From Deinococcales bacterium (GTDB lineage: Bacteria; Deinococcota; Deinococci; Deinococcales; JAAFIG01): DNA of 64,000 bases. A program made the translations under genes and the position numbers. The notes below the pieces were generated by a model, which saw nothing but the letters and a program-made list of their open reading frames with translations, did not search any database and had not been told where the DNA came from. The stretch lies in the NCBI GenBank assembly GCA_025352125.1, contig JANXTZ010000081.1:34297-98296 (forward strand). Direction: 5' to 3'. This document shows, piece by piece, positions 21,439 to 63,689 of the stretch. Each line of letters opens with the position of its first letter. Within the stretch, counting starts at the first letter, position 1.

Positions 21439-21933
21439 GTGCGCATGAACCAAGACCTGAAAATCATGTATGACCTCGTGCGTCGCACCCGCGAAGTGTT
21501 GTTCGAGTTTACCGAAAGCCTGCCAAACCAGATTTATACCCTCGAGCGACCCGATTTTGCCTACGGCAGCATTCGCAACATTCACGCCCACGTTGCCTTT
21601 TGCTACCTGGCTTGGATTGGTGTGGCACTGGGTTACAAACGCGAGGATTTGATTGTACCCGCCGAACAAATTTCGGATGCCACCGCCATGCGCGAACGGT
21701 TTGGGGTTGTGGACAAAATTGTGAACGAAGCCCTCGAGAAATTCACAACCCCAGACGAACCGCTCGAGTTTGAGCACCGTTCTGGAAACCTGAAATTAAC
21801 CCAGCGCTGGTTGCTGCTGCATCCGATCACCCACGAGTTTCACCACAAAGGGCAATTGCTGGCACTGGCACGGGTGCTCGAGCATCCATTGCCCGAAGGT
21901 GTGGACACGGATTTGGTGCTGCCGTTCGAGTGA
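21439..21933 (+). CDS. DinB-family (four-helix-bundle metalloenzyme-like) protein
   Basis: DinB-like length with histidines spaced as in the family (HAHVAF..., HPITHEFHHKGQ). Confidence 0.7.
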   Translation: MRMNQDLKIMYDLVRRTREVLFEFTESLPNQIYTLERPDFAYGSIRNIHAHVAFCYLAWIGVALGYKREDLIVPAEQISDATAMRERFGVVDKIVNEALEKFTTPDEPLEFEHRSGNLKLTQRWLLLHPITHEFHHKGQLLALARVLEHPLPEGVDTDLVLPFE

Positions 21934-22009
21934 ATTGTAGTCTCACCTTCAAAATTAAGTGATTAGAATAATGTAAAGTTGATGAGCATTTTAAAAACTT
22001 GGGGGAAAT

Positions 22010-22867
22010 ATGAAACATCAACTGCAAAAAGCGGTATTGGTCGCCATCAGTCTGTCAACATTCGCAGCCATCAGCACATTTTCTGGCACAATTGCCCTGG
22101 GAGACCAAACTAAAAACTTTGCCCTGTGCGGCATCTGCAAAGGCGCAAACCATTACGTCGGATTTGCCCGCCAAAACAACGCTCGACTGGGCACAGCGCA
22201 AGAATCAATACCCGCACAAGTGCTCCGAACCTACCCAGGCTTAAGCGATGCCAAAGAAATTCTGACCGCTCGAGGGCGTACCGCCGTTCGGGTTGAACAA
22301 GAAAATGGAAACTTCGTGATTTCCGAACACCGCCTTGAGACACTGCGCATTGGCAACCTGCGCAAATCAGAAACCATGATCGCCCAAGTCACCGACCAAA
22401 TTGGTAGTGCCGAAGCTCGAGTTCAACTCGTTTGGGGCGACACCATCAGCATTCGTTCCAAAACCCTCGCCCGTGGCACACCAGTCACCCTGACCCTCAA
22501 CCGAAGTACAGGCGGTTTTGGAAATCCTGCCAGCCAAGGCGCGTATTACAACGTTCAGAGTGAAACCTACATTGACGGTGTTGCCATCACCGACCTGGCT
22601 TTTGGCTTGAAACGCTACCCTGGCGAGGGACAAAAAGACCAAGCGACTGGTAAAGACAAACTGGATTACAAAATTCAAACCAAAGTCGGACAAACCATTC
22701 GACTCGAAGGTTCATTGGCTGTGACCGACGGTGTAAAATCGGCTTTGAAATCACAACAGATTCTGAACGGCGCGGATTCTGTCGTGTACACCATCGCCAT
22801 TGATAACGCTGATGCTTGCGGTCAATCGAGCAGTGGTCAAATGGATGCAGGAACGTGCAAACCATAA
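22010..22867 (+). CDS. secreted hypothetical protein
   Basis: Signal peptide MKHQLQKAVLVAISLSTFAAIS. No recognisable domain. Confidence 0.55.
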   Translation: MKHQLQKAVLVAISLSTFAAISTFSGTIALGDQTKNFALCGICKGANHYVGFARQNNARLGTAQESIPAQVLRTYPGLSDAKEILTARGRTAVRVEQENGNFVISEHRLETLRIGNLRKSETMIAQVTDQIGSAEARVQLVWGDTISIRSKTLARGTPVTLTLNRSTGGFGNPASQGAYYNVQSETYIDGVAITDLAFGLKRYPGEGQKDQATGKDKLDYKIQTKVGQTIRLEGSLAVTDGVKSALKSQQILNGADSVVYTIAIDNADACGQSSSGQMDAGTCKP

Positions 22868-22894
22868 AGCTTATTTAAAATCAATATGGTCTTG

Positions 22895-22926
22895 ACTGGC
22901 ATGGGCGCTCGAGTGTCCATGCCAGT
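22895..22926 (+). terminator. putative intrinsic terminator
   Basis: 10-bp perfect stem actggcatgg / ccatgccagt with a 12-nt loop containing CTCGAG. The T-tract (ttatt) is weak. Confidence 0.45.
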
Positions 22927-23067
22927 TATTGTCAGTACGGATTTGGTATTGCTGTTGGAGTGAATGGGATACTCGAGTTCGCTGCAAAAATTGCGTGATG
23001 CTGCGTTTAATGTAAAAAACCGCTTTAAGTTGGCGCGATATTAATTTGAGAAGGTGAAGTGAATCCT

Positions 23068-23832
23068 TTAATTGAATGTAGATCGCTCTGTGTCGTTGGG
23101 TTTTAATATTCCTGATTTGCTGTTCAGTTGAAGTAATTTATTCCAATTGATCTCATCATCTTTACAGTAATCAATCAGGAATTCTCGAGTAAAACGAGTG
23201 TACAATTTTGTCCGCTCCTGTTCATATTCCTCGTTATGGCGCTTGGCTTCAAAACCAACAGGTTCGATCAAATCAATGTACAGTTGTTCACTGCCAGACA
23301 AAAAATGCCAAAAGGCTTGTCCGGTTAATTTCAGGTATTCGCCATTGTTCACAGGGGCTGTTGCACCATAGCAAATTCCTAAAACAGGCTGTACCTCACC
23401 AATATTTTTTGCTTGTTTGAGTACCCTGACAGCGGTTTTAAAGTTCGTTTTTAGGGCTTTATACTGACTCGAATTGCCCCAGTTTGGACCAGATTTGATG
23501 CTGACCACGTATCTTACGCCATCCCGAGCAAATTCGAGGTCTGCTCCCGTCACACCAGATTTCAAACCATCTGAGGTTTGTTGTAACACGAAAATAGCTA
23601 AAGCCTCAAGAAAATCACCAAAATGTTTTTCTTCTGAACTCGACAAAAAAGCGTCCAGCAAACTTGAAACCAGTGTGGTTGGAGCGAGATTTTTAGCACG
23701 AAACAAGTACGGATTTTTACGCTTTAACAAACCGATCAATTTTAGTTTTTTGAGTCCCTCGAGTCGCGCATTGTGAAAAGTACTGATATGGGCATTGACG
23801 TAGAGTGCCACCTGTTCGAGATTAACTGCCAT
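23068..23832 (-). CDS. putative type II restriction endonuclease (specificity unknown)
   Basis: Co-oriented with the DNA methyltransferase, whose 3' end its start overlaps by 11 nt (ATG at 23832, preceded by GAGGAA). PD-(D/E)xK-like arrangement E...DLEF...VVSIK. AT-rich relative to its flanks. Family not assignable by eye. Confidence 0.6.
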   Translation of the reverse strand: MAVNLEQVALYVNAHISTFHNARLEGLKKLKLIGLLKRKNPYLFRAKNLAPTTLVSSLLDAFLSSSEEKHFGDFLEALAIFVLQQTSDGLKSGVTGADLEFARDGVRYVVSIKSGPNWGNSSQYKALKTNFKTAVRVLKQAKNIGEVQPVLGICYGATAPVNNGEYLKLTGQAFWHFLSGSEQLYIDLIEPVGFEAKRHNEEYEQERTKLYTRFTREFLIDYCKDDEINWNKLLQLNSKSGILKPNDTERSTFN

Positions 23833-24685
23833 GAATTTCCTCAAATAAAGGTGAAATATCGGTTTTTTCTGCATTTAGGCGTTGTTGTGCGACTTCAATG
23901 TACTCAAGTTTAAGTTCTGTACCAACATAATATCGTCCGAGGCGATGAGCGGCGATAGCGGTTGTGCCACTGCCCATGAATGGGTCCAAAACAACATCCC
24001 CTGGTGAACTAAAGAGTTTGATGAACCATTCTGGTAAACCAATGGGAAATGCGGCGCTGTGATTACGATTACCGCATTCAGTAGCCAGATGGATGACATT
24101 GGTCGGATAAACAAGATCGCGTCCAACCCAGTTTGAAATGTTTTTACCAAAACCACTGCCAACTTTGGATTCGTCGCGGCGTTTGTCAGTTTTGCTCAAA
24201 TTTTTTAAACGGCTCTCTGCCCAATCACCAACTGGAACACGGACAGCATCTTGGTTCATTTTAAACTGACGCTCTTTTGTAAAATGTAAACAACGCTCCC
24301 ACGCATCACGAAATCTATTTGACCATTTCCCTGGAAACGAATTACGCTTATGCCACATGTATTCTTCGGTCCAAAGCCAGCCTTGTTTTTTTAATTCGAG
24401 AATCAACTCGAGTACATAAGTGTGTCGTTCTCCAGCGACAACTCGTTCTTTAATATTTAAAACAAACGAACCTGTCGGTTTGAGAACACGATGTAATTCA
24501 GCCGCAATAGGCATAAACCAGGCTGCATACTCGTCGGGATGAACTCCACCGTAAGTATTTTTACGCTGATCGGCATAGGGTGGTGACGTAACGATCAAAT
24601 CTATGCTGGAATCTGGTAAATGCTGTAAAGTAGTGCAGGCATCGCCTTGAAAAATCTGGTTGTGCCAAGTGATATCAGAAGTCAT
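23822..24685 (-). CDS. beta-class N4-cytosine/N6-adenine DNA methyltransferase
   Basis: Catalytic motif IV TSPPY near the N-terminus and AdoMet motif I DPFMGSGTT near the C-terminus. This is the beta-class order of the N6_N4_Mtase family; SPPY is more typical of N4C enzymes. Confidence 0.9.
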   Translation of the reverse strand: MTSDITWHNQIFQGDACTTLQHLPDSSIDLIVTSPPYADQRKNTYGGVHPDEYAAWFMPIAAELHRVLKPTGSFVLNIKERVVAGERHTYVLELILELKKQGWLWTEEYMWHKRNSFPGKWSNRFRDAWERCLHFTKERQFKMNQDAVRVPVGDWAESRLKNLSKTDKRRDESKVGSGFGKNISNWVGRDLVYPTNVIHLATECGNRNHSAAFPIGLPEWFIKLFSSPGDVVLDPFMGSGTTAIAAHRLGRYYVGTELKLEYIEVAQQRLNAEKTDISPLFEEIHGS

Positions 24686-24739
24686 GTTTGTATTCTGCCA
24701 TGTTCGGAATGAAATGTCGCGTTACTTGAATAACCGCCG

Positions 24740-25861
24740 TTAATCCGCCGCCATCTCGAGGTCATAAACCTTCAACTCGTCATAAAACGCGTTGCGTTCC
24801 ACTGCCACACGCCCAGCTTTCTTGATCAAATCCACCATCTTCTGGGTGGTCAACCCAAGCGGGCTAACCGCGCCTGCGGCATGTGCGATGTGCTCGTCAA
24901 TGATCGTGCCGTCAATGTCGCTGACGCCCCAGTCCAGCGCGACTTGCACCAGGTCGCTCGAGATCATGACCCAGTAGCCTTTGACGTGATCAAAATTGTC
25001 CAGGTAAATCCTCGAGACTGCCAAATTGCGCAGGTCGTCAATGCCTGTCGTAAATTCGGTTTTGCCCAGGTTGAAGGCGAGTGCGTTCGCGTCGGGTTGA
25101 AACGCGAGCGGGATGAAACTGTGAAAGCCGCCCGTTTCGTCTTGCAGCGTGCGCAACCTGTCAATGTGGTCTAGCCGTTCCTCGAGCGTTTCGATGTGTC
25201 CGTAAAGCATGGTGGCGTTGGTGCGAATGCCCAAACTGTGGGCTTCTTTGTGAATTCTGAGCCAGTCATCGGCGCTAACCTTGCGTTTGGCAATCTCGAG
25301 CCGCACTCGGTCAGCAAAAATCTCTGCCCCGCCCCCTGGCATGGCGGCAAGTCCTGCGGCTTTCAGTTCGGTCAAGACCTCGAGCGTACTTTTTTTGGCA
25401 ATGTGGCTGAGGTGCTCGATTTCGGCGGCGGTGAAGGCTTTGACTTGCAAACCAGGAAATTCGGCGTTCAAAGCCCGCACCATGTCAGGGTAGTAACTCC
25501 AGGGGCGGGTCGGATGATGCCCGCTGCTCATGTGCAGTTCTTGCAAGCCTGGTTCGTACTTCTCGCGGACATGGGCGACCACATCTTCAACGCTGTAATC
25601 CCAGGCTCGAGCCTCGTTTTTGTTGGCGGCAAAGGCGCAGAACGTGCAACCGACGTAGCAAATATTGGTGAACTCGAGGCGCATGGAGTGCACAAAATAG
25701 GTTTTGTCACCGTTCTTGCGCTCGCGCACCACGTTCGCCAGCCTCGAGAGGGTGTTGAGGTCGTGCGTGTCGAATAAAACCATGCCCTCGCTAAAATTGA
25801 GGCGTTCACCCGCCATGACTTTGGCGGCGATAGGCTCGAGTTTGGGGTCCAGAATCTTCAT
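24740..25861 (-). CDS. futalosine-pathway radical SAM enzyme (MqnE/MqnC family)
   Basis: Radical-SAM cluster motif CYVGCTFCAF and overall MqnC/MqnE-like sequence. The start is taken at MKILDPKLEP. I cannot separate MqnE from MqnC by eye. Confidence 0.8.
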   Translation of the reverse strand: MKILDPKLEPIAAKVMAGERLNFSEGMVLFDTHDLNTLSRLANVVRERKNGDKTYFVHSMRLEFTNICYVGCTFCAFAANKNEARAWDYSVEDVVAHVREKYEPGLQELHMSSGHHPTRPWSYYPDMVRALNAEFPGLQVKAFTAAEIEHLSHIAKKSTLEVLTELKAAGLAAMPGGGAEIFADRVRLEIAKRKVSADDWLRIHKEAHSLGIRTNATMLYGHIETLEERLDHIDRLRTLQDETGGFHSFIPLAFQPDANALAFNLGKTEFTTGIDDLRNLAVSRIYLDNFDHVKGYWVMISSDLVQVALDWGVSDIDGTIIDEHIAHAAGAVSPLGLTTQKMVDLIKKAGRVAVERNAFYDELKVYDLEMAAD

Positions 25862-50700: not shown

Positions 50701-52317
50701 ATGAAACACCGGTTGCTGATTTTAACGGCGCTGATTTTAACGGCGCTGATTCTGGGCGTTGCCGTTGCGCAAAATTTGAGTGGGACTTGGGTTGCAAAGC
50801 TGCAAAACGGCTCAATACTGACGCTGGTCTTGCAAGAAATGGACGGGCAAATTCAGGGAACACTGACGGGAAACGGCGTGACCTTGCAACTCGAGGGGGA
50901 TTCAAACGGGGTCAGCGCCGAGGGGACAATCTCGAGCCAGACCGAACAAGCCGTGTTTCAATTGACCTTACTCAGCAACACTTTGACCTTGGTGATTTCC
51001 GAGATTGACCCGAACACGGGTGAAGCCAACCAAAGTACCGCCCAGACCTTTTTATTTAGCCGCAATTCCAGCTCGAGCAACCAAACTCCAGGCAAGCCTA
51101 CCCCAAACAACACCGTTGTCCCCAACCCAAACCTGCCAGACCCACTGCTCGGACGGTTTGTTGGAAAGGACATGACGCTCGAGGTGCTGGGTGGCAATGG
51201 CAGTTACAAGGGCGCGATCACGCTTGCCAAACAAAAATACGCCATGACAGGACAGGGCGGCAATGGCGTTTTGCGTGGGCAATTTGTGGCAAAAGGCAGC
51301 ACGTTTTTGTTCGAGGCTCGAGTCAAGCAAAACAACATGACCGTGTTGTTGAACGGCAAAACGTATGCGCTGAGCCGTCAGGCTGTCCAAAATCCCAACG
51401 CGAGCACCAAACCAGGCGTCAGCACGCCAGCACCAAGCACCCCAAGCTCGAGCTTACCTGAATCCAGCAAAGCTGAACTGCGCGAACAAGCCCAGTACAA
51501 AGCCGGAACGCGGGTCAACTCGAGCCAGCACGGGGTGTCGTTTGTCGTGCCGCAAGGTTTTAAGGGGGCGACCACCCAAGGCATCACGGTGCTGGGCAAC
51601 GGACGCACCGATGCGAGCGGAATTAACATTTTGATTTTTCCATTTGTTGGCGCAAACCTTGAGGACGTTTACGCCTTGATGTCAAAACCGATTGATTACG
51701 GACAACTCAGCTTCAGCCCGACGGACAGCGGAAGTGGCAATGCCAACCGCGTGATGTTTCATTACTCGAGCAACGCGTCCAACGCCGTGGGCGTGTCGGT
51801 GCTGGGAAAAGGCAATGGCTTGAGTTTTCAAGTGATCGGGTTTGCCAGCAACGCAGCCCTCGAGCCATTGGCAATGGCGAACGCCAGCAAATTCTCGGGT
51901 GCCAGTCTGAACAACACGCTTCAAACCATTCGGGCGGGATTCTCGGGCAAGTATTTGTTTGCCTATTTATACAGCGGCACAACAAGCAACACCGGCAGTT
52001 TCTCGAGCGAATCCAAACGCCAATGGGATTTGTGCGGCAACGGGCGTTACTTTTTTGAGGGCAAGAGCGAAAGTGCTTTCAATGTGCAATTGCCAAACGG
52101 TGGCGACACGACGGGTTCGGCGGGCGGCGCAAGCCAAAATCAGGATGGCTCGAATGGACGTTGGGAAATCTTGATTGTGGGGAACGGCGTGGCATTGATT
52201 CTATTCAAGGACGACCAGACTGTGGAACTTCATTTGTTAAGCAATTTAGACCGCAAAATACCGTTTTTGAATGGCAAGGAGCTTGGAAGTTTTGGCGCAA
52301 GCAACAAATGCCGCTAG
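50701..52317 (+). CDS. secreted hypothetical protein (538 aa)
   Basis: AAGGAGG ribosome-binding site, a signal peptide carrying an internal LILTA duplication, and low-complexity S/N/P linkers. No domain recognised. Confidence 0.6.
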   Translation: MKHRLLILTALILTALILGVAVAQNLSGTWVAKLQNGSILTLVLQEMDGQIQGTLTGNGVTLQLEGDSNGVSAEGTISSQTEQAVFQLTLLSNTLTLVISEIDPNTGEANQSTAQTFLFSRNSSSSNQTPGKPTPNNTVVPNPNLPDPLLGRFVGKDMTLEVLGGNGSYKGAITLAKQKYAMTGQGGNGVLRGQFVAKGSTFLFEARVKQNNMTVLLNGKTYALSRQAVQNPNASTKPGVSTPAPSTPSSSLPESSKAELREQAQYKAGTRVNSSQHGVSFVVPQGFKGATTQGITVLGNGRTDASGINILIFPFVGANLEDVYALMSKPIDYGQLSFSPTDSGSGNANRVMFHYSSNASNAVGVSVLGKGNGLSFQVIGFASNAALEPLAMANASKFSGASLNNTLQTIRAGFSGKYLFAYLYSGTTSNTGSFSSESKRQWDLCGNGRYFFEGKSESAFNVQLPNGGDTTGSAGGASQNQDGSNGRWEILIVGNGVALILFKDDQTVELHLLSNLDRKIPFLNGKELGSFGASNKCR

Positions 52318-54554: not shown

Positions 54555-55196
54555 TTACTTCAACAGGTTTGTGTACGCAAAATCGAGCACCAGACCCAAA
54601 AACTGCCCAACGGGTTGCTGCAACAAGATCAGTACAAAAAACGCCAGATAACCGCTTCGGGGCAAGAAATGCCGCAAGCTTGCACCCATTGACCCAGGAA
54701 TGATTGCCGCCAGAAAGTGCGCCCCGTCGAGCGGTGGAATCGGCAAGAGGTTAAAGACCGCCAGAATCACATTTAAGCGAAACAAGGTCAGCAAGGCATC
54801 AACAATCCAGGCGGGCGCATTGCCACCAATCAAACTGTTCCCGACCACATGAACATCCGACAGACGCAATGCCAGCGTGGCAACCAGCACCAACGTCAAA
54901 TTCATCAAAATTCCGGCGCTCGAGACGAGGGCTTCACCGAGCAAGCCGTGACGGTACAATTCTGGGCGGGTGCGCACCTGTCCCAGAAAGCCAAACCCGA
55001 TCAACAAGAACATGATAAAACCGATCCAGTTGAGGTAATACAGGGGATTCCAAACGAATTTTCCGTTTTTGGTCGGGGTCAAATCGCCCTCAAAAATCGC
55101 GGCGAGCGCATGACCGTATTCATGAACGGTGACTGAAACCAGCAAGACCAGAAAATAGCTGAACGCCTCGAGCGGCGGCAAACCTTGCAAACCCAT
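54555..55196 (-). CDS. site-2 protease (peptidase M50) family protein
   Basis: HExxH motif (VHEYGHALAA) plus the second metal-ligand motif NLLPIPPLDG. Confidence 0.85.
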   Translation of the reverse strand: MGLQGLPPLEAFSYFLVLLVSVTVHEYGHALAAIFEGDLTPTKNGKFVWNPLYYLNWIGFIMFLLIGFGFLGQVRTRPELYRHGLLGEALVSSAGILMNLTLVLVATLALRLSDVHVVGNSLIGGNAPAWIVDALLTLFRLNVILAVFNLLPIPPLDGAHFLAAIIPGSMGASLRHFLPRSGYLAFFVLILLQQPVGQFLGLVLDFAYTNLLK

Positions 55197-55858
55197 TACA
55201 TCAAACCAATGGCTTGCAAGACCGCCACAATCAGCGAAATGATCGCGCCCGAAATGGCTCGGGTAATGCCCAAGTACGAGAGCACCAGAAAAATAATCAT
55301 AAAACCAAAGGGCGTGCTGTTGGTAAATTGTTCGATTTGATCCATCACACGGTTGATTTCACGGTTTCCAAAAGCCCGTACCACCCGAGCGCCGTCCAGG
55401 GGCGGCACTGGGAAGATAAACAAGGCTGCCAAACTGATCACGTTGCCCGCGCCAGAAAAGAAACCAGAAGCAATCGCCTGGCTGCTTTCACCCACGAACT
55501 TATTGAGCAACGCCCCGACCAGAATCAAGACAAAAGCCCAGACCACCAAACTGAACGGACCGAGCAACCAGATCAACACCTCCGAACTCGAGCGACCGCG
55601 AAGGTTGTACGACTTTAAAGGAATGGTGTTTGGAATGGCGAAACCAAAAATCGCCAGCCAGATCAAATAAATGGGGTTGAGGTGCGCCCTGGGTTCCGTG
55701 CTGGTAAAGCCCTGATTTTTGGCGGTATCATCGCCCAAACTCGAGGCGACCAGGGCTTGTACGACGTTGTGAAGCACCAGACCAAACGCCATTGCCGCGA
55801 GCGCCATCAGGTAGGTTAATGGACTGGTGAACAGTTCTTGAATGAAAATGGAAAACAT
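55196..55858 (-). CDS. M50-like paralog with degenerate active site
   Basis: Same architecture and the FPVPPLDG motif, but HExxH is replaced by LHNVVQALVA. Its stop overlaps the downstream start (TAATG). Confidence 0.75.
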   Translation of the reverse strand: MFSIFIQELFTSPLTYLMALAAMAFGLVLHNVVQALVASSLGDDTAKNQGFTSTEPRAHLNPIYLIWLAIFGFAIPNTIPLKSYNLRGRSSSEVLIWLLGPFSLVVWAFVLILVGALLNKFVGESSQAIASGFFSGAGNVISLAALFIFPVPPLDGARVVRAFGNREINRVMDQIEQFTNSTPFGFMIIFLVLSYLGITRAISGAIISLIVAVLQAIGLM

Positions 55859-55938
55859 GTGTCAGTTTACGATGCAAACGCCCAAGAAAAGGAGAGCTAC
55901 CCCCTTTTGCGGGCAGCCCTCAGCTCGAGATGAACAAA

Positions 55939-57699
55939 TTACGGCACGGGCAAGAAAGTTGGCGCAATACCAATTCGCACACTGGGCAGGCGTTGAAGCA
56001 CAATTTTTGGGTCGTTGGGCACATCGGCATCCGAACCAATCAGCACGAGTTGAGCGGGCTGAAGGGCAGTGCCAAGGCTTGTGGCTCGAGTAAGCGCCGC
56101 CGTGGTGGTCTCATTGAGTCCTCGAGCAAATTGCAGGGTGGGGTCTTGCGTGACCAGAAAGTTGAGGCTGAAACGGTACGGTTTTGGACAACCAGCCGGA
56201 TTTGGGCAGCTTGGGTTGGTGGCAAACGGGAATGTCCGTGGAAGTTTTGTACCGATGGTGACGTAGGTTTTGCCAGAGGCAGGCAAGACCCGGGTTTTGT
56301 TGATGTCTTTGGCGACAAACCCGTAATCGAGCACGCTGTCATTTGCGCCCAGGACGCCTGCGGTTCTGGCATTTTGTTCCAGGGTACCGTCGTACAAGCC
56401 CGAGTAGGCTTGAAAATCGCTGGCAATTGGGTCGGGTTGTGGCGAACTGATCAATTTTGTGCCGTGGATGGGCAGCAAGCTTTGTAAAACACCAGTGTTG
56501 GTGATTGCCAGGCTGTTAAAGTCAAACATGCTGTTCACGCCCATGCCGCTGGCGTTGGTTTGCTGATTGACGGCGCGAAGGGTCAGATTGGAAAAATTAT
56601 TCGTGTTACTCAAATTACTGACTTCAAATGTCATGGTCAAGTAGCGAAAACCGCCGCCAATGTCATCAATGTCCGAATACGACAAGGGTTTGAAGGCAAA
56701 GGTGTTGCTCGAGTCGTTGGTCGTTGCGGTTTTGGTCGTGTTCCACTCGAGGTTGACCGACCCCAGAACGCTGGGAATGGCGCTTGGAATGCTGGTCAGG
56801 TACGAAAGCGGCGCGGAACTGCCGCCGGTCACCCGAGCGCCAACCAAGTTGATTCGGTTGGCGGCAACCAAGGTCGAATTGGGAAATGCTCGGACGTTCG
56901 CAGTGCCTATGGCTGTGGCTCGAGCCAGGGCGGCACTGCCATTGATGGGTTCTTCGAGGCTTTGCACCACCTGAGTGTTGTCATTTTGCGCGACAATAAA
57001 AGTCATGACAAACCGAGTGCCCGAACTGACATCGGCGGACGCTGGCAGGCGCATACTGAGCGCGACTTGACCCGTTGCGCCATTGGCGATGGTGCGGTTG
57101 TGGCTGACGGCGCTTGCCCTGGCGACAAAACCGTACTCGAGGCTGTACTCGCCAGCACCGATGAGGCTGGCGCTCAAGGCGCTGCTGGTGAAGGCAACGC
57201 TTTCGGCAGGTGTATACACTTGCAAATCCGAGTGAAATTCGCTGACCAGATCGCTGCCGTTTGTGCCTTGGGCAGGTTTGACACTGTTGACATCGCTATT
57301 GCTGGGCATACCGCCAAAGGTGTTGATGCTTTTTAAAGCGCTGGCATTGACATTGCCCGTTTTGGCATACGCCACGAGGCTGAGGTTGGTCAGGCTAGCT
57401 CCAGAATTGTTGGTGATGTTGTAGACCGCCGTCAGGGTGCGTTGCGTCGGGCTGACCCCGAGGTCATCGAGCACCACAAAACTTTTGGGCGTGGCGCTGA
57501 TGCTCGAGTCCGGTTTTGGCGTCAAGGTTCTGGTGGTTGGAAAAAACCGTGCGGTGTTGCGCGATAAATCAGTGCCGAAATTGACCTCGAGCGTGCCAAG
57601 AAATCTGGGGGCTGCGAACGGCGCGGGGGTGGTGTTGCAAGCCACCAACAGGGTCGTTGAACTCAGGGTGGTCAGCAAGATTCGGCTCGTGTGATTCAC
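55939..57699 (-). CDS. large T/S/N/A-rich surface lipoprotein, function unknown
   Basis: Lipobox LLVAC after an N-terminal hydrophobic segment. Beta-rich, low-charge composition. Confidence 0.6.
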   Translation of the reverse strand: MNHTSRILLTTLSSTTLLVACNTTPAPFAAPRFLGTLEVNFGTDLSRNTARFFPTTRTLTPKPDSSISATPKSFVVLDDLGVSPTQRTLTAVYNITNNSGASLTNLSLVAYAKTGNVNASALKSINTFGGMPSNSDVNSVKPAQGTNGSDLVSEFHSDLQVYTPAESVAFTSSALSASLIGAGEYSLEYGFVARASAVSHNRTIANGATGQVALSMRLPASADVSSGTRFVMTFIVAQNDNTQVVQSLEEPINGSAALARATAIGTANVRAFPNSTLVAANRINLVGARVTGGSSAPLSYLTSIPSAIPSVLGSVNLEWNTTKTATTNDSSNTFAFKPLSYSDIDDIGGGFRYLTMTFEVSNLSNTNNFSNLTLRAVNQQTNASGMGVNSMFDFNSLAITNTGVLQSLLPIHGTKLISSPQPDPIASDFQAYSGLYDGTLEQNARTAGVLGANDSVLDYGFVAKDINKTRVLPASGKTYVTIGTKLPRTFPFATNPSCPNPAGCPKPYRFSLNFLVTQDPTLQFARGLNETTTAALTRATSLGTALQPAQLVLIGSDADVPNDPKIVLQRLPSVRIGIAPTFLPVP

Positions 57700-57887: not shown

Positions 57888-59155
57888 TTGCCCGCCAAAA
57901 ACCAGGTTCCAACATACGCCATTGCACCGATCACAAACACAAGCTGGTAATTAAAGGCATCCGCCAGTTTTCCACCAAGCACTGGCATGAACACCGCAAT
58001 GCCGACCAAAGTGTTGACTGTACCGATATAACGCCCTCTGGCTTGGGGATTGGCGACACCCAAAATATGGTTGGCATTGCCAAGGTTCAGACCCGCCTGC
58101 GCGACAGCGGACAGCACAAACACCAGCGCGTACCAGTCGCCTGCGCCTTTGGGCATCAAAAGCGCCGTGACCAGTGCCGCGATGGAAAATCCAAGCGCGT
58201 AACGAATGATTCGCCTCGAGCCAAAATGGCTTGCCACCACCGACCAGACCCAATTCGAGAGCGGGGCGACAATGCCAACGACGATCAAAAAATTACCAAT
58301 GCTGGCTTTGGGCAGACCAATCACACGCAACGCATAAACTGTAAAGAACGGGTCAGCGAGGCTGGAGAGGGCAGTCGCAACGCGGTACATGACGTAAGCC
58401 CTGAAGCCAGGGTCGGACATGATCGTGTTTGGGATGGCTCTGACCTCATCCCTGAACCTCGAGGGGTCTTGCGGTGGGTCTGGTGGCTCAATGGTCAAGC
58501 CGTAGACGTTCCAGCCAAGCGTGAAGACCAGTGCGCCCAAGGCAAAAATAAGGGTGTAATCGAACGGAAAAACCAAACTCGAGGCGAGAATGCTTTTCAC
58601 CAGAAATCCTGCCAGCAACGCCAGCAGACCGCCCCAGAGGTTGCGAATCCCAAAAAACCTCGAGCGCTCGGCGGCAGGGATGGTTTTGGCAGCCACCTCG
58701 AACCAGGGCAGTCCACTGACGCCAGATGCCAGGGAATTGATCAACAAGCCCAGCAAGAACATCACCAGTAAAAGCGTGTGATTGTTAGAGAAAATCACGC
58801 TCGAGAGCACAATGAAAATCATGCTGGCAGTCCGAGCAAAAGCGGTTTTTTGATAGATGACTATTTTGCGCGGCAAATGCCTGATCTTGCTGGCGACCAA
58901 CAATTGCGGCAGCAACCAACCGCCAACGGTAATGGCGGGCAATGCCCCGATCACGCTGTTGCTCGCGCCCAAACTGGCGGCGAAACTCGAGAGGACAATG
59001 GATTGATTGAAAAAACCGTCACCCATCGACACAAACCAACCGTTCAAAACACCGTACAGGTAATTGCGATTCCAACCAAACAGACGCTCGAGTCTGACAA
59101 AAATTGACTCGAGCAGGTTTGAGGCAGGTTTCATGCCGAGATCATAACGCGCCAT
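57869..59155 (-). CDS. MFS transporter
   Basis: 12-TM-like hydropathy and MFS-like loops. Confidence 0.8.
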   Translation of the reverse strand: MARYDLGMKPASNLLESIFVRLERLFGWNRNYLYGVLNGWFVSMGDGFFNQSIVLSSFAASLGASNSVIGALPAITVGGWLLPQLLVASKIRHLPRKIVIYQKTAFARTASMIFIVLSSVIFSNNHTLLLVMFLLGLLINSLASGVSGLPWFEVAAKTIPAAERSRFFGIRNLWGGLLALLAGFLVKSILASSLVFPFDYTLIFALGALVFTLGWNVYGLTIEPPDPPQDPSRFRDEVRAIPNTIMSDPGFRAYVMYRVATALSSLADPFFTVYALRVIGLPKASIGNFLIVVGIVAPLSNWVWSVVASHFGSRRIIRYALGFSIAALVTALLMPKGAGDWYALVFVLSAVAQAGLNLGNANHILGVANPQARGRYIGTVNTLVGIAVFMPVLGGKLADAFNYQLVFVIGAMAYVGTWFLAGKLRRDV

Positions 59156-59239
59156 TTTGAGCGAATCTCTGAGCGAAGCCTTAAAGAACGGTCATTTTGC
59201 ACGCACACCCCAGAATGAACGCGGTATAGTTGTACGAAG

Positions 59240-59893
59240 ATGACTGCCGCTGACCCACGTCCAACTGTGCTGATTGTTGAGGATGACACCTCATTGCAAA
59301 GTGTGCTCGAGGCACTGCTCGGGCGAGATTATCGACTGAGCATTGTCGGTGATGGCAAAGAGGCACTGGAACATTTGCAGTGGGACACGCCAAACCTGGT
59401 CATTTTGGATGTCACGATACCGCACGTGGACGGTTTGGACATCTGCTCGAGAATCAAACGCATCAAACGCTTCCGCGACACCCGTGTGATCGTCATGACC
59501 GCCAGCATGGACGAGCGTACCCACGACGCGGCAAACCTTGCCAAAGCCGATGCTTTTGTCAGCAAACCCATTGTCAACGAACAATTTCGTCATTTGGTGC
59601 GCGAGTTATTAAACAAAGCCGACGCGCCAAAGTCATTCACCGATTCGGCTTTTACCGGCAGCCTCGCCGATGCCAGCGCAGACCGTACACCGCCAAGCTT
59701 GAGCAAAACAACCTCTGAAACGCTGATCGCAAAAAATCCCAGCGGGATCATCAAAGCCGAATTTGACGAGGCTGAATACGTGGCAAAACCTGTAGAGACC
59801 GCGAACGCCCATGCCAATTTGTTTGAAGAATGGGACGACTCGAGCAAGGATGACACCGGTCAAAACGCTTCCAAAAACAATTCCAACTTTTAA
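59240..59893 (+). CDS. response-regulator receiver protein with disordered C-terminal tail
   Basis: REC domain (VLIVEDD, phospho-acceptor in LVILDVTIP, SKP). No recognisable output domain. Confidence 0.85.
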   Translation: MTAADPRPTVLIVEDDTSLQSVLEALLGRDYRLSIVGDGKEALEHLQWDTPNLVILDVTIPHVDGLDICSRIKRIKRFRDTRVIVMTASMDERTHDAANLAKADAFVSKPIVNEQFRHLVRELLNKADAPKSFTDSAFTGSLADASADRTPPSLSKTTSETLIAKNPSGIIKAEFDEAEYVAKPVETANAHANLFEEWDDSSKDDTGQNASKNNSNF

Positions 59894-60510
59894 TGCCGCC
59901 CGAATTGCTGGGTTTGAGTTTGGGCTTGGCGGCAGGCATCAGCCCAGGACCGCTGCTCAGTCTGGTCATGCGTACCAGCCTCGAGCGTGGCTTTTGGGCG
60001 GGCGTTCGGGTGGCACTCTCACCGCTTTTGACCGACGCTCCAATCATTGCCCTGTGTTTGATGATTGTAAACGCTTTGCCTACCAGTTTTGCCGCCCTGC
60101 TGGGTTTGATCGGCGGGGCGTTCGTGATTTACCTTGGCATTGAAGGCATCAAAACCGCTGGGCATGCCAGCCTCGAGCAGCCTGAACCTGTCAAACAATC
60201 CCAAGATTTTTTGCGCGGCGCACTGGTCAACATTCTCAGTCCACACCCGTGGTTGTTCTGGCTTGGGATTGGCGCTCCGACCTTGCACAATGCCTACCAA
60301 ATGGGTGCAATACACGCCGTTGGGTTTTTATTCGGGTTTTTTAGCTTGCTGATCGGCATGAAAATCGGTCTGGCATTTTTAATCTCGAGCGGCAAACGGT
60401 TCTTAACCCCAAAATCTTACAAAGCCGCATTGTACTTCTCGAGCATTTTAATGTTTCTGGCAGGCTTTGTTTTGATGCTCGAGACGTTGCGTAACCTGTT
60501 TAACATCTGA
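59893..60510 (+). CDS. LysE/RhtB-family amino-acid exporter
   Basis: Six-TM protein of about 205 aa with the N-terminal GISPGP motif. Confidence 0.8.
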   Translation: MPPELLGLSLGLAAGISPGPLLSLVMRTSLERGFWAGVRVALSPLLTDAPIIALCLMIVNALPTSFAALLGLIGGAFVIYLGIEGIKTAGHASLEQPEPVKQSQDFLRGALVNILSPHPWLFWLGIGAPTLHNAYQMGAIHAVGFLFGFFSLLIGMKIGLAFLISSGKRFLTPKSYKAALYFSSILMFLAGFVLMLETLRNLFNI

Positions 60511-60530
60511 CTCGAGTTGTCCTTTTTGCC

Positions 60531-60574
60531 TGTGGATAAGCTGTGGACAAGTGCTGTGGATAACCTGTGGATAA
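60531..60574 (-). promoter_or_regulatory. cluster of four co-oriented DnaA boxes
   Basis: tgtggataa (60531), tgtggacaa (60542), tgtggataa (60555) and tgtggataa (60566). These are the reverse complement of TTATCCACA: three perfect, one with a single mismatch. Confidence 0.7.
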
Positions 60575-60575
60575 C

Positions 60576-60610
60576 AAAAAAAGCATCTCGAGTATTGAGG
60601 CTCGAGATGC
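60576..60610 (-). terminator. intrinsic terminator of bamA (also closes the convergent lysE-like gene)
   Basis: 10-bp perfect stem gcatctcgag / ctcgagatgc with an 8-nt loop. A7 on the plus strand gives U7 on the bamA transcript. Confidence 0.85.
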
Positions 60611-60638
60611 CAATTGCTATTTGCTATGCGCTATTTGC

Positions 60639-63287
60639 TTAGAACGGAAAGCCCAACCTGAAGTGAAACTTGCCACCTGGATTCCAGGGACTAAACGCGT
60701 AATCAAGTCGAATGGCGGGCAGTTGGAACGAACCAAAACCCAGATTGATCTGAACGCCCAAACCAAAACCAAATTGCAAACCCTCAGGAATGGCAACACC
60801 ACTGCGTGAAGCGCGGAACTCCACCCCAGGACCGCCGCCCCAAGCGTTACCGAAATCCAGGAAGGCAATGCCCAACAAACCGTAGGTGAACGAGGTTTGC
60901 AAACCGAAATCGTAACGAAGCTCGAGCGATCCCGTGTAAAACAACTGCCCACGAAGGTCGTTAAAATCGTAACCGCGCAGGGTGTAATCCTCAAGTTGCG
61001 AACTGCCACCGATGCGGAACAAACGGTTGGCGGGCGCATCACCGACAATAAAGCCCGTGTTGAACCTAAACGCGAGGGCGAATTTGCGATCATCGCCGAT
61101 GTTAAAATTACCGTTTTGATCCCAACCAAAACCCAAGTAGGTGCGGAAACCAACCGTGGTTTGCTCCCACGACAAAGGTTTTTCGGTGCCTGAACCAATG
61201 CCTGCCGTGCCAAAACCGTAACCGACTGTGCCAGTGACCAACACGCCTTGGGTTGGGAAATCTTGACGGTTTTTGGTGCTGAACTGACCCGCAACCTGGG
61301 TGAAAACCGTCAGGTTATCTGGTGCATTTACTTTGAGTACGTTTGGATCGACATTCACCTGGTCGGCTTGATATGGCAAGGTCGGATTTGTCGCGCCAGG
61401 CAATTTGGTGTCGTCTTTCTCGAGATAATTGGATTCGTAACTGAAATCAAAACTGACCCGAACACTAAAATTTTCACCGACCGGTCTTGACACGCTCAAT
61501 CCAAATCCTGTGGAACGCCCAGAGTACAATCGTGCCGAATTTTTGGTCGAATCTGTAACGACGTAATTTGGAATCGGGTTTCCCGCACTGACGCTGGTTG
61601 AAATGCTGAACGTCACCTCGGTGCGCGTCTGGCGGAAGTCCAGAAAGTCAATGTCCAACCACGGAATGGTGTATGACAAGCCACCCGAGAAATTTTGACC
61701 TGCATTGTTTGGACCACCCTGAATACCCAGGTTGATACGGTGATTCTGACCCCACAGGTTTTGCTCGGTGACGCTCAGTTGCCCCGCAAAACCATCCAGG
61801 GTGCTGTAGGTGATGCCAGGCACAATGTTGCCCGACGATCCCTCCTCGAGTCCCAAGACCAAAATGATCTCGTAAGGCTTGCTGGGATCAGGGATTTTCA
61901 CGCCCACCTGCAAATCTTTTAACAAACCCAGTTGTTGAATGCGTCCAAAACTGGCTCGCAACGCCGTGATGTTGAACAAACCACCCACTTTGGGCAATTC
62001 GCGGGTGATGACACGGTTGTCGGTACGGTGGTACCCGCGCCAGTTGATCTCAAAACCGATCAGCTTTTGTTCCTGAATACTCACGGTGTAAATGCCGTCG
62101 CTGAAACCAAATTTGGGTTCTGGCACAATCCCGTAACCCGCCTCCTGGTACACGTCGTTGATCGCCGAGAAGTCCTCTTCGGCAAGTTTGGGGTTGTAGG
62201 TATCACCAATTTTTTGCTTGAACCGCGCCAGCAAGACGCTGCTGGGTACAGCCGTGTTGCCCTGAATGTTGATGCTGGTGATTGGACCCGCCGCCGCATC
62301 CTCGAGCGTCAGGGTCACGATCAGGGTGTCCTCGCCTGCGGGTTCGATCTTGACCCCGATTTGCTTGTCACGACCTTTGGCGAGACGTCCAATGTCTTTT
62401 AAAAGCGTGTCGTAATTGAAAAAATCACCCGTTTTGAGGCTGAGTTCGTCTGGATTCACACCGAGCGCGGTGGCGTCAACGGCGGCAATCTTGTACTCGA
62501 TAATTCGAATGGTCAACACGCCGTCAACCAGTTTGCTGAGTTCAAAACTCGGACCGCTGTAACGGTAACCCAAGGCAGTGTATTTGGCTCGGACGGCTTG
62601 GGCGGCGCTTTGGTAGACATCGGCTTTGAACGCCCCACCGTCAACCATCGACTTGTACAACGCCTTGATGTCGGCGACGGGCACAAGGGTCGCGCCGACC
62701 ACCTCGACTGACTTGATGCTGGCGGATTCGGTGACGTTAAAGGTCACGGTTTGCTTGCCGTCTTTGATCTCACCAAGCTCGAGTTTGACTTCAGGCTCGA
62801 AGGGCAACACCTGACGGTAGGCTTGCCCAACGGCGGCGGCAGCCTCTTTGAGCTTGGTTTCGTTGATGGTCACCCCGATGCCAATGTTGAAGTTCTTATC
62901 CAGGAATTCGACCAGTTGCGCACTTGGCACAATCGCATTGCCGGTAAAGATCACCTCGCCGATGACGGGGTTGGATTCGACGGCAATCACCACCACATTG
63001 CGAGAATCCCGAACCTCAAGTGTGACCTTGACGGTTTTAAAGAACCCGAGCGCCAGCAACTGATTCTGAATCTCTTCGACTTTGACATTTTCAATTGGAT
63101 CACCGACAGAAATGTCGATGGTGACTTTGACCAGACCTTTGATCGTGTCGTCATCCGTGCCGGTCACGATGATCTCATCGATAGAACCTGTCGGCACGGG
63201 TTGGCTTTGAGCGAATGCCGTACCCAGGCTCGAGGTCAACCCGAACCAGCACAGCAAGAGGGCAGCGATATGACGGATTTTAGGCAT
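60639..63287 (-). CDS. bamA: outer-membrane protein assembly factor, Omp85/BamA family
   Basis: Signal peptide MPKIRHIAALLLCWFGLTSSLGTAFAQ after GGAGGA. Multiple POTRA-like repeats, a C-terminal D15 beta-barrel, and a terminal ...FRLGFPF. Confidence 0.85.
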   Translation of the reverse strand: MPKIRHIAALLLCWFGLTSSLGTAFAQSQPVPTGSIDEIIVTGTDDDTIKGLVKVTIDISVGDPIENVKVEEIQNQLLALGFFKTVKVTLEVRDSRNVVVIAVESNPVIGEVIFTGNAIVPSAQLVEFLDKNFNIGIGVTINETKLKEAAAAVGQAYRQVLPFEPEVKLELGEIKDGKQTVTFNVTESASIKSVEVVGATLVPVADIKALYKSMVDGGAFKADVYQSAAQAVRAKYTALGYRYSGPSFELSKLVDGVLTIRIIEYKIAAVDATALGVNPDELSLKTGDFFNYDTLLKDIGRLAKGRDKQIGVKIEPAGEDTLIVTLTLEDAAAGPITSINIQGNTAVPSSVLLARFKQKIGDTYNPKLAEEDFSAINDVYQEAGYGIVPEPKFGFSDGIYTVSIQEQKLIGFEINWRGYHRTDNRVITRELPKVGGLFNITALRASFGRIQQLGLLKDLQVGVKIPDPSKPYEIILVLGLEEGSSGNIVPGITYSTLDGFAGQLSVTEQNLWGQNHRINLGIQGGPNNAGQNFSGGLSYTIPWLDIDFLDFRQTRTEVTFSISTSVSAGNPIPNYVVTDSTKNSARLYSGRSTGFGLSVSRPVGENFSVRVSFDFSYESNYLEKDDTKLPGATNPTLPYQADQVNVDPNVLKVNAPDNLTVFTQVAGQFSTKNRQDFPTQGVLVTGTVGYGFGTAGIGSGTEKPLSWEQTTVGFRTYLGFGWDQNGNFNIGDDRKFALAFRFNTGFIVGDAPANRLFRIGGSSQLEDYTLRGYDFNDLRGQLFYTGSLELRYDFGLQTSFTYGLLGIAFLDFGNAWGGGPGVEFRASRSGVAIPEGLQFGFGLGVQINLGFGSFQLPAIRLDYAFSPWNPGGKFHFRLGFPF

Positions 63288-63689
63288 TGATTGACATCCT
63301 CCAACGTGTCGCGCCACAAAATCAATTCTGTGGTTCGCGTTGCTCGAGCGTCCCCGAGCGGGTACCATAAAACCATAAATACTGAGCGCATAAAACATTT
63401 TGTGAAATTGCTTGGATTCATCAAGTTCTTTACCGGTGAGATGTTTCCAAGTTTCCATTCACGGGTTCAGGCGAGAAGAATCAAAATCAATCCACTGGAA
63501 TTCCTTTAAAAGTGTCGCCCATTCCCGTATTGGAGCGGTGAAGCACCCGTGAGAACCCTGATTTGAAACTTAAGCAACCCTTAACCCTGTGCTGCTCGAG
63601 TTTTAGCAGTTTGATGTTAACTGGTTTTGTGATACAAAAGCGACTTTTGGCAATACAAGACGCCCTGCGCCTGGGCTAAGATGTGACCC

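Follow-up and report, generated by a model that had tools for sequence, protein, structure and literature searches.

A conserved array of paired DnaA boxes beside the bamA terminator in uncultured Deinococcales, probably a DnaA-binding element outside the origin

Clusters of DnaA boxes that lie outside the replication origin govern the availability of the initiator in Escherichia coli and Bacillus subtilis, and they have been characterised in very few phyla. In E. coli the datA locus promotes the hydrolysis of DnaA-ATP. The core of the DARS loci depends on head-to-head contact, for which boxes I and II are oriented oppositely. Box 2 of datA overlaps the glyVXY terminator, and transcription through datA interferes with its function (PMC10950094). 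In B. subtilis the stable binding of DnaA in vivo tracks the density of boxes times their affinity; all of the bound regions (8/8) had an A above 0.3, with a maximum of 1.64 (Ishikawa 2007, PMC2533591). Deletion of six B. subtilis clusters resulted in early initiation, an effect which depends on their proximity to oriC (Okumura 2012, PMC3245932).

ChIP-seq in E. coli found DnaA at 'double DnaA boxes', that is two boxes in the same orientation 2-3 bp apart (Stringer, Fitzgerald and Wade 2024, PMC11317965). When either half was mutated, or a 3-bp gap was widened to 4 bp, the binding was greatly reduced, and many isolated consensus boxes were unbound in the same data (PMC11317965). At oriC, tandem boxes no more than 3 bp apart together with DnaA-trios make up the basal unwinding system, BUS (Pelliciari 2021, PMC8287927). 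The DnaA protein of Deinococcus radiodurans was found in EMSA to bind TTATCCACA better than variant boxes, and to bind more tightly with more boxes (PMC7988490). No description of a non-origin DnaA-box element in this phylum, or in the lineage studied here, was found in the literature searched.

Here we describe a small cluster of DnaA boxes from a Deinococcales bacterium. The whole stretch of DNA that was analysed, 64 kb long, is called the window, and all coordinates below refer to it unless a related locus is named. The features of the cluster and its neighbours are:

60531-60574, minus strand: the whole cluster, two head-to-tail double DnaA boxes with 2-bp gaps and 4 bp between the pairs
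60531-60539, minus strand: DnaA box 1, perfect, TGTGGATAA as written and TTATCCACA on the minus strand; the half of double box A that is nearer to the LysE gene
60542-60550, minus strand: DnaA box 2, one mismatch, TGTGGACAA as written and TTGTCCACA on the minus strand; the other half of double box A
60555-60563, minus strand: DnaA box 3, perfect, TGTGGATAA as written and TTATCCACA on the minus strand; half of double box B
60566-60574, minus strand: DnaA box 4, perfect, TGTGGATAA as written and TTATCCACA on the minus strand; half of double box B; a single base separates it from the bamA T-run
59240-59893, plus strand: response-regulator gene, whose stop overlaps the LysE start and which reads towards the cluster
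59893-60510, plus strand: LysE-family transporter gene (Pfam PF01810), with its stop codon 20 bp from the first box
60576-60611, minus strand: intrinsic terminator of bamA, an 11-pair hairpin (60582-60611) followed by a run of seven T, from terminator scan and fold
60639-63458, minus strand: bamA, Omp85 family, Deinococcus type, 939 aa, with POTRA domains; its 3' end faces the cluster

Both reading of the sequence and a pattern search identified TGTGGATAA as the perfect complement of TTATCCACA, and the four boxes share a single orientation throughout the 44 bp of the array. Their starts are spaced by 11, 13 and 11 bp, leaving gaps of 2, 4 and 2 bp. The initial annotation had described three perfect boxes and one with a single mismatch in the same orientation and with this spacing, which was confirmed, and it had held that such a cluster is not due to chance. 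This also stood. In 64 kb about 0.5 perfect 9-mers are expected on both strands by simple arithmetic, while three were present, every one of them inside the cluster; a Poisson estimate for such a clustering of boxes was approximately 1e-7, and the boxes are conserved among relatives (see below). When one mismatch was allowed, seven boxes were seen in the whole window against 9.4 expected from shuffled sequences, so there is no overall enrichment, and four of these seven fall inside the 44 bp. The value of A as defined by Ishikawa was 3.55 for the cluster, compared with the threshold of 0.3; the runner-up in the window had 0.01.

The pairs of the cluster were the only good double boxes in the window. 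The sole other site resembling a double box, TCGTTCACAattTTGTCCACA at 21708-21728 on the minus strand, has four mismatches in total and a 3-bp gap. It is at chance level, as about one such site is found per shuffled window, and it was rejected.

The cluster sits in a 3'-3' gap of 128 bp, with the stop of the LysE-family gene on one side and the bamA terminator on the other. Along the gap there are 20 bp, the four boxes, one base, seven A, the 11-pair hairpin at 60582-60611, 27 bp and the bamA stop. The PF01810 match, the POTRA domains, the best NCBIfam match of the bamA product (the Deinococcus-type BamA model NF058613, E = 4.8e-200) and the terminator scan together bore out the earlier placement of the boxes between a LysE-like gene and bamA, beside the bamA terminator. 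Since the stop of the response-regulator gene overlaps the LysE start, the two genes probably form one operon; the same gene pair is also found in the relatives L009, L011 and L014-L016. The response regulator comprises a receiver domain at residues 10-120, followed by an unassigned C-terminal part of approx. 95 aa.

The bamA terminator folded with -24.9 kcal/mol (z = -4.6) and ends one base from the nearest DnaA box. A terminator scan of the gap identified a terminator-like site on the minus strand only. On the plus strand neither the sequence nor the scan gave a U-tract after a hairpin, and therefore the LysE operon lacks an intrinsic terminator of its own. The stem of the bamA terminator is built on two copies of CTCGAG, in the window (60582-60611) as well as in the homologous hairpins of L001-L016. 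Outside this core the stem varies on both sides (GCATCTCGAG/CTCGAGATGC, GCGCCTCGAG/CTCGAGGCGC, GTGTCTCGAG/CTCGAGACAC), so that the stem is kept among the relatives while the loop varies freely.

DnaA acts as a transcription factor at the E. coli double boxes and at several B. subtilis clusters, and the boxes could in principle regulate a promoter, for example that of an unannotated small RNA or antisense transcript, as DnaA does at dnaA, nrdA and sda. Both flanking genes end at the gap, however, so that neither has its promoter there, and the 128 bp are filled by the boxes and the terminator. A promoter scan detected no sigma-70-like promoter in or near the gap, and Rfam gave no match in 59000-62000 even at E values up to 1. 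Thus the boxes are not located at, or just upstream of, a detectable promoter, and we consider a role of this kind very unlikely.

Bacterial origins, like the BUS, are built around tandem DnaA boxes of consensus sequence, and the cluster could accordingly belong to an origin of replication, be it oriC or a secondary one. Apart from the boxes themselves, none of the origin features looked for was found. Pfam searches with essentially all sizeable ORFs of the window returned metabolic, transport, signalling and restriction-modification genes, and neither dnaA nor dnaN within the approx. 60 kb to the left of the cluster. In the close relative L002 neither gene was found within approx. 10 kb beyond bamA, i.e. 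approx. 13 kb from the cluster. When the window and the 19 related loci were scanned in six frames for the signature and Walker A motifs of DnaA, nothing was detected. The lowest GC content of any 40-bp segment within 400 bp on either side was 35%, hence there is no AT-rich stretch, and no GC-skew switch is present in the window. DnaA-trios, which are phased as NAN/T, were absent as well: after the last box on the TTATCCACA strand follows GGCAAAAAGGACAAC, which has no T in its first 15 nt. In addition, the non-coding gap is just 128 bp, the flanking genes converge instead of diverging, and three relatives have only two boxes.

With the BUS of oriC the cluster thus shares a tandem box pair no more than 3 bp apart, but it lacks DnaA-trios and an AT-rich unwinding element, and it is not in a dnaA/dnaN neighbourhood. 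Taking the window and the fetched parts of the relatives together, dnaA, dnaN, an AT-rich element, trios and a skew switch were all missing, which places the cluster outside oriC. The initial annotation had stated that no dnaA, dnaN or unwinding element lies in the window, and this was borne out by the Pfam searches, the motif scan, the GC minimum and the skew. Its preference for a non-origin DnaA-binding cluster over oriC gained support from the absence of origin features and from the purifying selection on the boxes. We regard an origin at this position as scarcely credible.

Relatives were collected with the two flanking proteins. A search with BamA returned five species-representative MAGs named 'Deinococcales bacterium' at 88-92% identity and a sixth at 51%. 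A protein search with LysE returned 13 closely grouped protein clusters with identities of 73-100%, after which the identity dropped to 54% or less. Contigs were fetched for several of the LysE clusters, and the loci of the relatives were numbered L001-L019 (L001-L005 are JAYVRX010000041.1, CAXTTL010000028.1, JANLWR010000698.1, JAYTKL010000155.1 and JANMUC010000656.1, respectively). A scan of a metagenome contig collection with an alignment of the BamA C-terminus detected no relative; as the peptides used for the search are present in JGI contigs of this lineage, the collection itself does not contain the lineage.

The cluster was present at the same spot and in the same orientation in all 14 loci that have the LysE-bamA arrangement (L001-L005 and L008-L016; LysE identity 73-92%, BamA 88-92%). 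Eleven of them carry four boxes and three carry two (L001, L008 and L009), L008 and L009 being the most divergent of the 14. No further perfect box was found beyond this locus in approx. 180 kb of DNA from the lineage, window included. At L006, where BamA is 51% identical, the boxes are absent, and so they are at L017-L019, where LysE is 51-54% identical and the gene context is different. This absence from the next more distant relatives indicates that the cluster is a young, lineage-specific feature.

Alignment of the gap from 15 loci (the window and the 14 relatives) gave 12 distinct sequences, among them nine distinct four-box sequences. Box 1 was invariant in all 12 (pi = 0) and box 3 in all nine four-box sequences. 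In box 4 one of nine columns varied among the four-box relatives, and box 2 drifts between TTATCCACA, TTGTCCACA and TTGCCCACA (pi = 0.08). The surrounding positions were far more variable, with pi = 0.28 for the 2-bp spacers, 0.64 for the middle spacer, 0.54 for the terminator loop and 0.52 for the stretch from the terminator to the bamA stop. Among the four-box loci 3 of 36 box columns were variable compared with 49 of 63 other intergenic columns, for which the Fisher p = 7e-12 is indicative only, because the sequences share a tree. We concluded from the alignment that the boxes are under strong purifying selection.

The spacing adds to this. Within a pair the box starts are 11 bp apart in every pair of all 15 loci, while between the pairs the distance is 13-14 bp, and therefore the conserved unit is the box pair with 2 bp in between. 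The boxes had earlier been called helically phased, which holds only roughly; more exactly, there are two pairs, each with a 2-bp gap that never changes, and between them a gap of 4-5 bp that varies among relatives. The four-box form has the appearance of a tandemly duplicated two-box unit of 24-25 bp, and the two-box state of L001 that of a secondary deletion.

Such a history, together with a box number that varies from two to four, would also fit a neutral by-product, for example the recent tandem duplication of a box pair that arose by chance; alternatively the sites could be the target of another protein. Against these explanations, the boxes have stayed perfect while the adjacent spacers and flanks diverged to pi = 0.3-0.6, the 2-bp gap is invariant, and the motif matches the universal DnaA consensus exactly, the one preferred by the D. 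radiodurans protein. We therefore hold either of these explanations to be distinctly unlikely.

In two of the relatives, L012 (888-1369) and L013 (747-951), no relation to the other loci is left past the bamA terminator, and the end of bamA lies approx. 400 bp further off, which points to DNA having been inserted between terminator and gene. Both loci still carry the DnaA boxes and the terminator.

Several other features of the window were recorded. Three sizeable ORFs (586, 220 and 538 aa), located in 55196-57699 on the minus strand and 50701-52317 on the plus strand, had no Pfam match at E of 0.001 or below; the 586-aa ORF is conserved beside an MFS transporter gene in L014, where it was called as a gene of 583 aa. 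A type II restriction-modification pair at 23068-24685 on the minus strand consists of an EcoO109I-family endonuclease (PF14511, E = 1e-70) and an N6/N4 DNA methylase (PF01555). It lies inside a stretch of low GC content at approx. 22000-25000, and as the GC content there is 44-46% compared with approx. 53% elsewhere, the region is probably a horizontally acquired island.

The palindrome CTCGAG is over-abundant in the window. It was counted 395 times in 64 kb, i.e. approx. once per 160 bp, against 11 expected from dinucleotide shuffles. No other hexamer is as frequent in the window, and its count is 22.7 times over the expectation from base composition. Each of the three reading frames contains it (179 times as CTC-GAG, 42 and 71 times in the other two), as does intergenic DNA, and its flanks show a slight preference for G/C. 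In the restriction-modification region it is sparse, with a gap of 649 bp at 23758-24407. Its density was similar in all of the related loci, at 4.5-9.5 per kb; in L006 and L017-L019, which are more distant and have a GC content of 58-63%, it was 3.4-8 per kb. This abundance resembles that of HIP1, the highly iterated palindrome of cyanobacteria; the literature searched yielded no paper that treats CTCGAG as a palindrome of this kind.

The main rival explanation for the boxes arises from their position relative to the two transcription units. DnaA bound to the boxes might act as a roadblock or terminator, so that polymerase coming from the response-regulator/LysE operon would be halted short of antisense transcription of bamA. 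The bound protein might strengthen the terminator of bamA, too, and read-through would then be tied to the level of DnaA. The only terminator-like structure in the gap is that of bamA on the minus strand, and the plus strand has no U-tract after a hairpin. In each of the aligned syntenic loci the boxes are found after the LysE stop and ahead of the bamA terminator, in constant orientation, and in the window the nearest box is 1 bp from the T-run. The boxes are thus downstream of an operon that has no terminator, a position compatible with an asnC-type roadblock. Reported precedents are the arrest of elongating polymerase by DnaA at its box in asnC and the damping of read-through by DnaA at box 2 of datA (PMC10950094, PMC11317965).

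Other observations speak against such a roadblock. The distance between boxes and terminator is not fixed among the relatives, ranging from 1 nt in the window over approx. 10 nt in L008 to approx. 45 nt in L009. The E. coli ChIP-seq study saw no DnaA at the classic guaB site (PMC11317965), which makes the generality of the effect doubtful. Furthermore, perfect consensus in three or four boxes exceeds what a leaky roadblock would appear to need. We consider the roadblock unlikely, if still the alternative to be taken most seriously.

The explanation we favour on balance is that of a non-origin, high-affinity docking or titration element for DnaA, lineage-specific and maintained by selection, which would be similar to the B. 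subtilis clusters (DBCs) and loosely similar to datA. It builds on what was established here, namely the anatomy of the array, its uniqueness within 64 kb, its conservation under selection and its lack of origin features. From the consensus of the boxes and the published work on D. radiodurans DnaA, we infer that the cluster very probably binds DnaA. The A of 3.55, the double-box rule of E. coli and the D. radiodurans binding data combined suggest that each box pair would hold a DnaA dimer, which would place about four protomers on the four-box form. The gap of 4-5 bp between the pairs would probably make them two adjacent units and not one continuous filament.

The position may be explained in the same terms. 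As datA lies after a terminator and is disturbed by transcription running through it, a quiet convergent gap is a sensible place for docking or titration. Just past the bamA terminator RNA polymerase would be least likely to sweep DnaA off its sites. An element of this kind would buffer the amount of free initiator, and it might in this way affect initiator availability. There are points against the docking or titration element, too. There would be room for few DnaA molecules on four sites, or on the two of L001, L008 and L009; the B. subtilis clusters act when they are close to oriC; and the relatives one step further away lack the cluster. A transcriptional role fits equally well with the constant orientation and with the place between an operon without terminator and a terminator.

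A more far-reaching version can be formulated, in which the cluster would be either a DnaA-gated barrier between the convergent units or a minimal, IHF-independent counterpart of datA in a phylum for which none has been described. We see this as rather improbable. If the barrier were true, the occupancy by DnaA, which varies with the cell cycle and the growth rate, would set both the antisense read-through into bamA and the efficiency of bamA termination, and outer-membrane biogenesis would be coupled to the status of replication. The cluster is small, unusually regular, clean and well conserved within a clade of uncultured Deinococcales. It is hence a compact object on which to test whether the 'double box' rule of E. 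coli holds in Deinococcota, and whether such clusters act on replication or on the neighbouring transcription.

Among the known systems, DARS1 and DARS2 are small non-origin clusters of three or four boxes as well, but they need the opposed boxes I and II, whereas the four boxes found here all point in the same direction. Like datA the cluster is a non-origin group of boxes directly after an intrinsic terminator; datA, however, needs an IHF site between its boxes, is larger and has its boxes otherwise arranged. When we searched approx. 200 bp on either side for the IHF consensus TAANNNNTTGATW with at most one mismatch, the one match was to the boxes themselves, and an IHF site of the datA type is thus absent. 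The block of transcription by DnaA that Schaefer and Messer described for asnC and guaB (1988, 1989, as cited in PMC10950094 and PMC11317965) likewise involves boxes at or beyond the end of a transcription unit, next to a terminator. Those sites are single boxes, and their occupancy in vivo has been questioned (PMC11317965).

With the E. coli double box the cluster agrees in the same orientation of the two halves and in their gap, which is 2 bp in every pair of the 15 loci. The E. coli sites usually have one consensus half and lie mostly upstream of the genes they regulate, while in the cluster both halves are consensus or near to it, the unit is doubled, and it is located downstream of both neighbouring genes.

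The initial annotation had drawn analogies to datA, DARS and the B. subtilis DBCs. The analogy to DARS did not hold for want of opposed boxes, that to datA failed at the IHF site, and the B. subtilis DBCs fit best. Like them, the cluster is short and intergenic, consists of at least four closely packed high-affinity boxes (with A above 0.3) and lies away from the origin. Some DBCs, e.g. the one after gcp, are also located downstream of genes and conserved among relatives, as is the cluster. It differs from them in that it belongs to another phylum and to an uncultured lineage, is known here from its sequence, and is both smaller (44 bp) and more regular, with two exact double boxes in one orientation. 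A known class is thereby extended to a new lineage, which would not surprise a specialist and leaves the current understanding unchanged.
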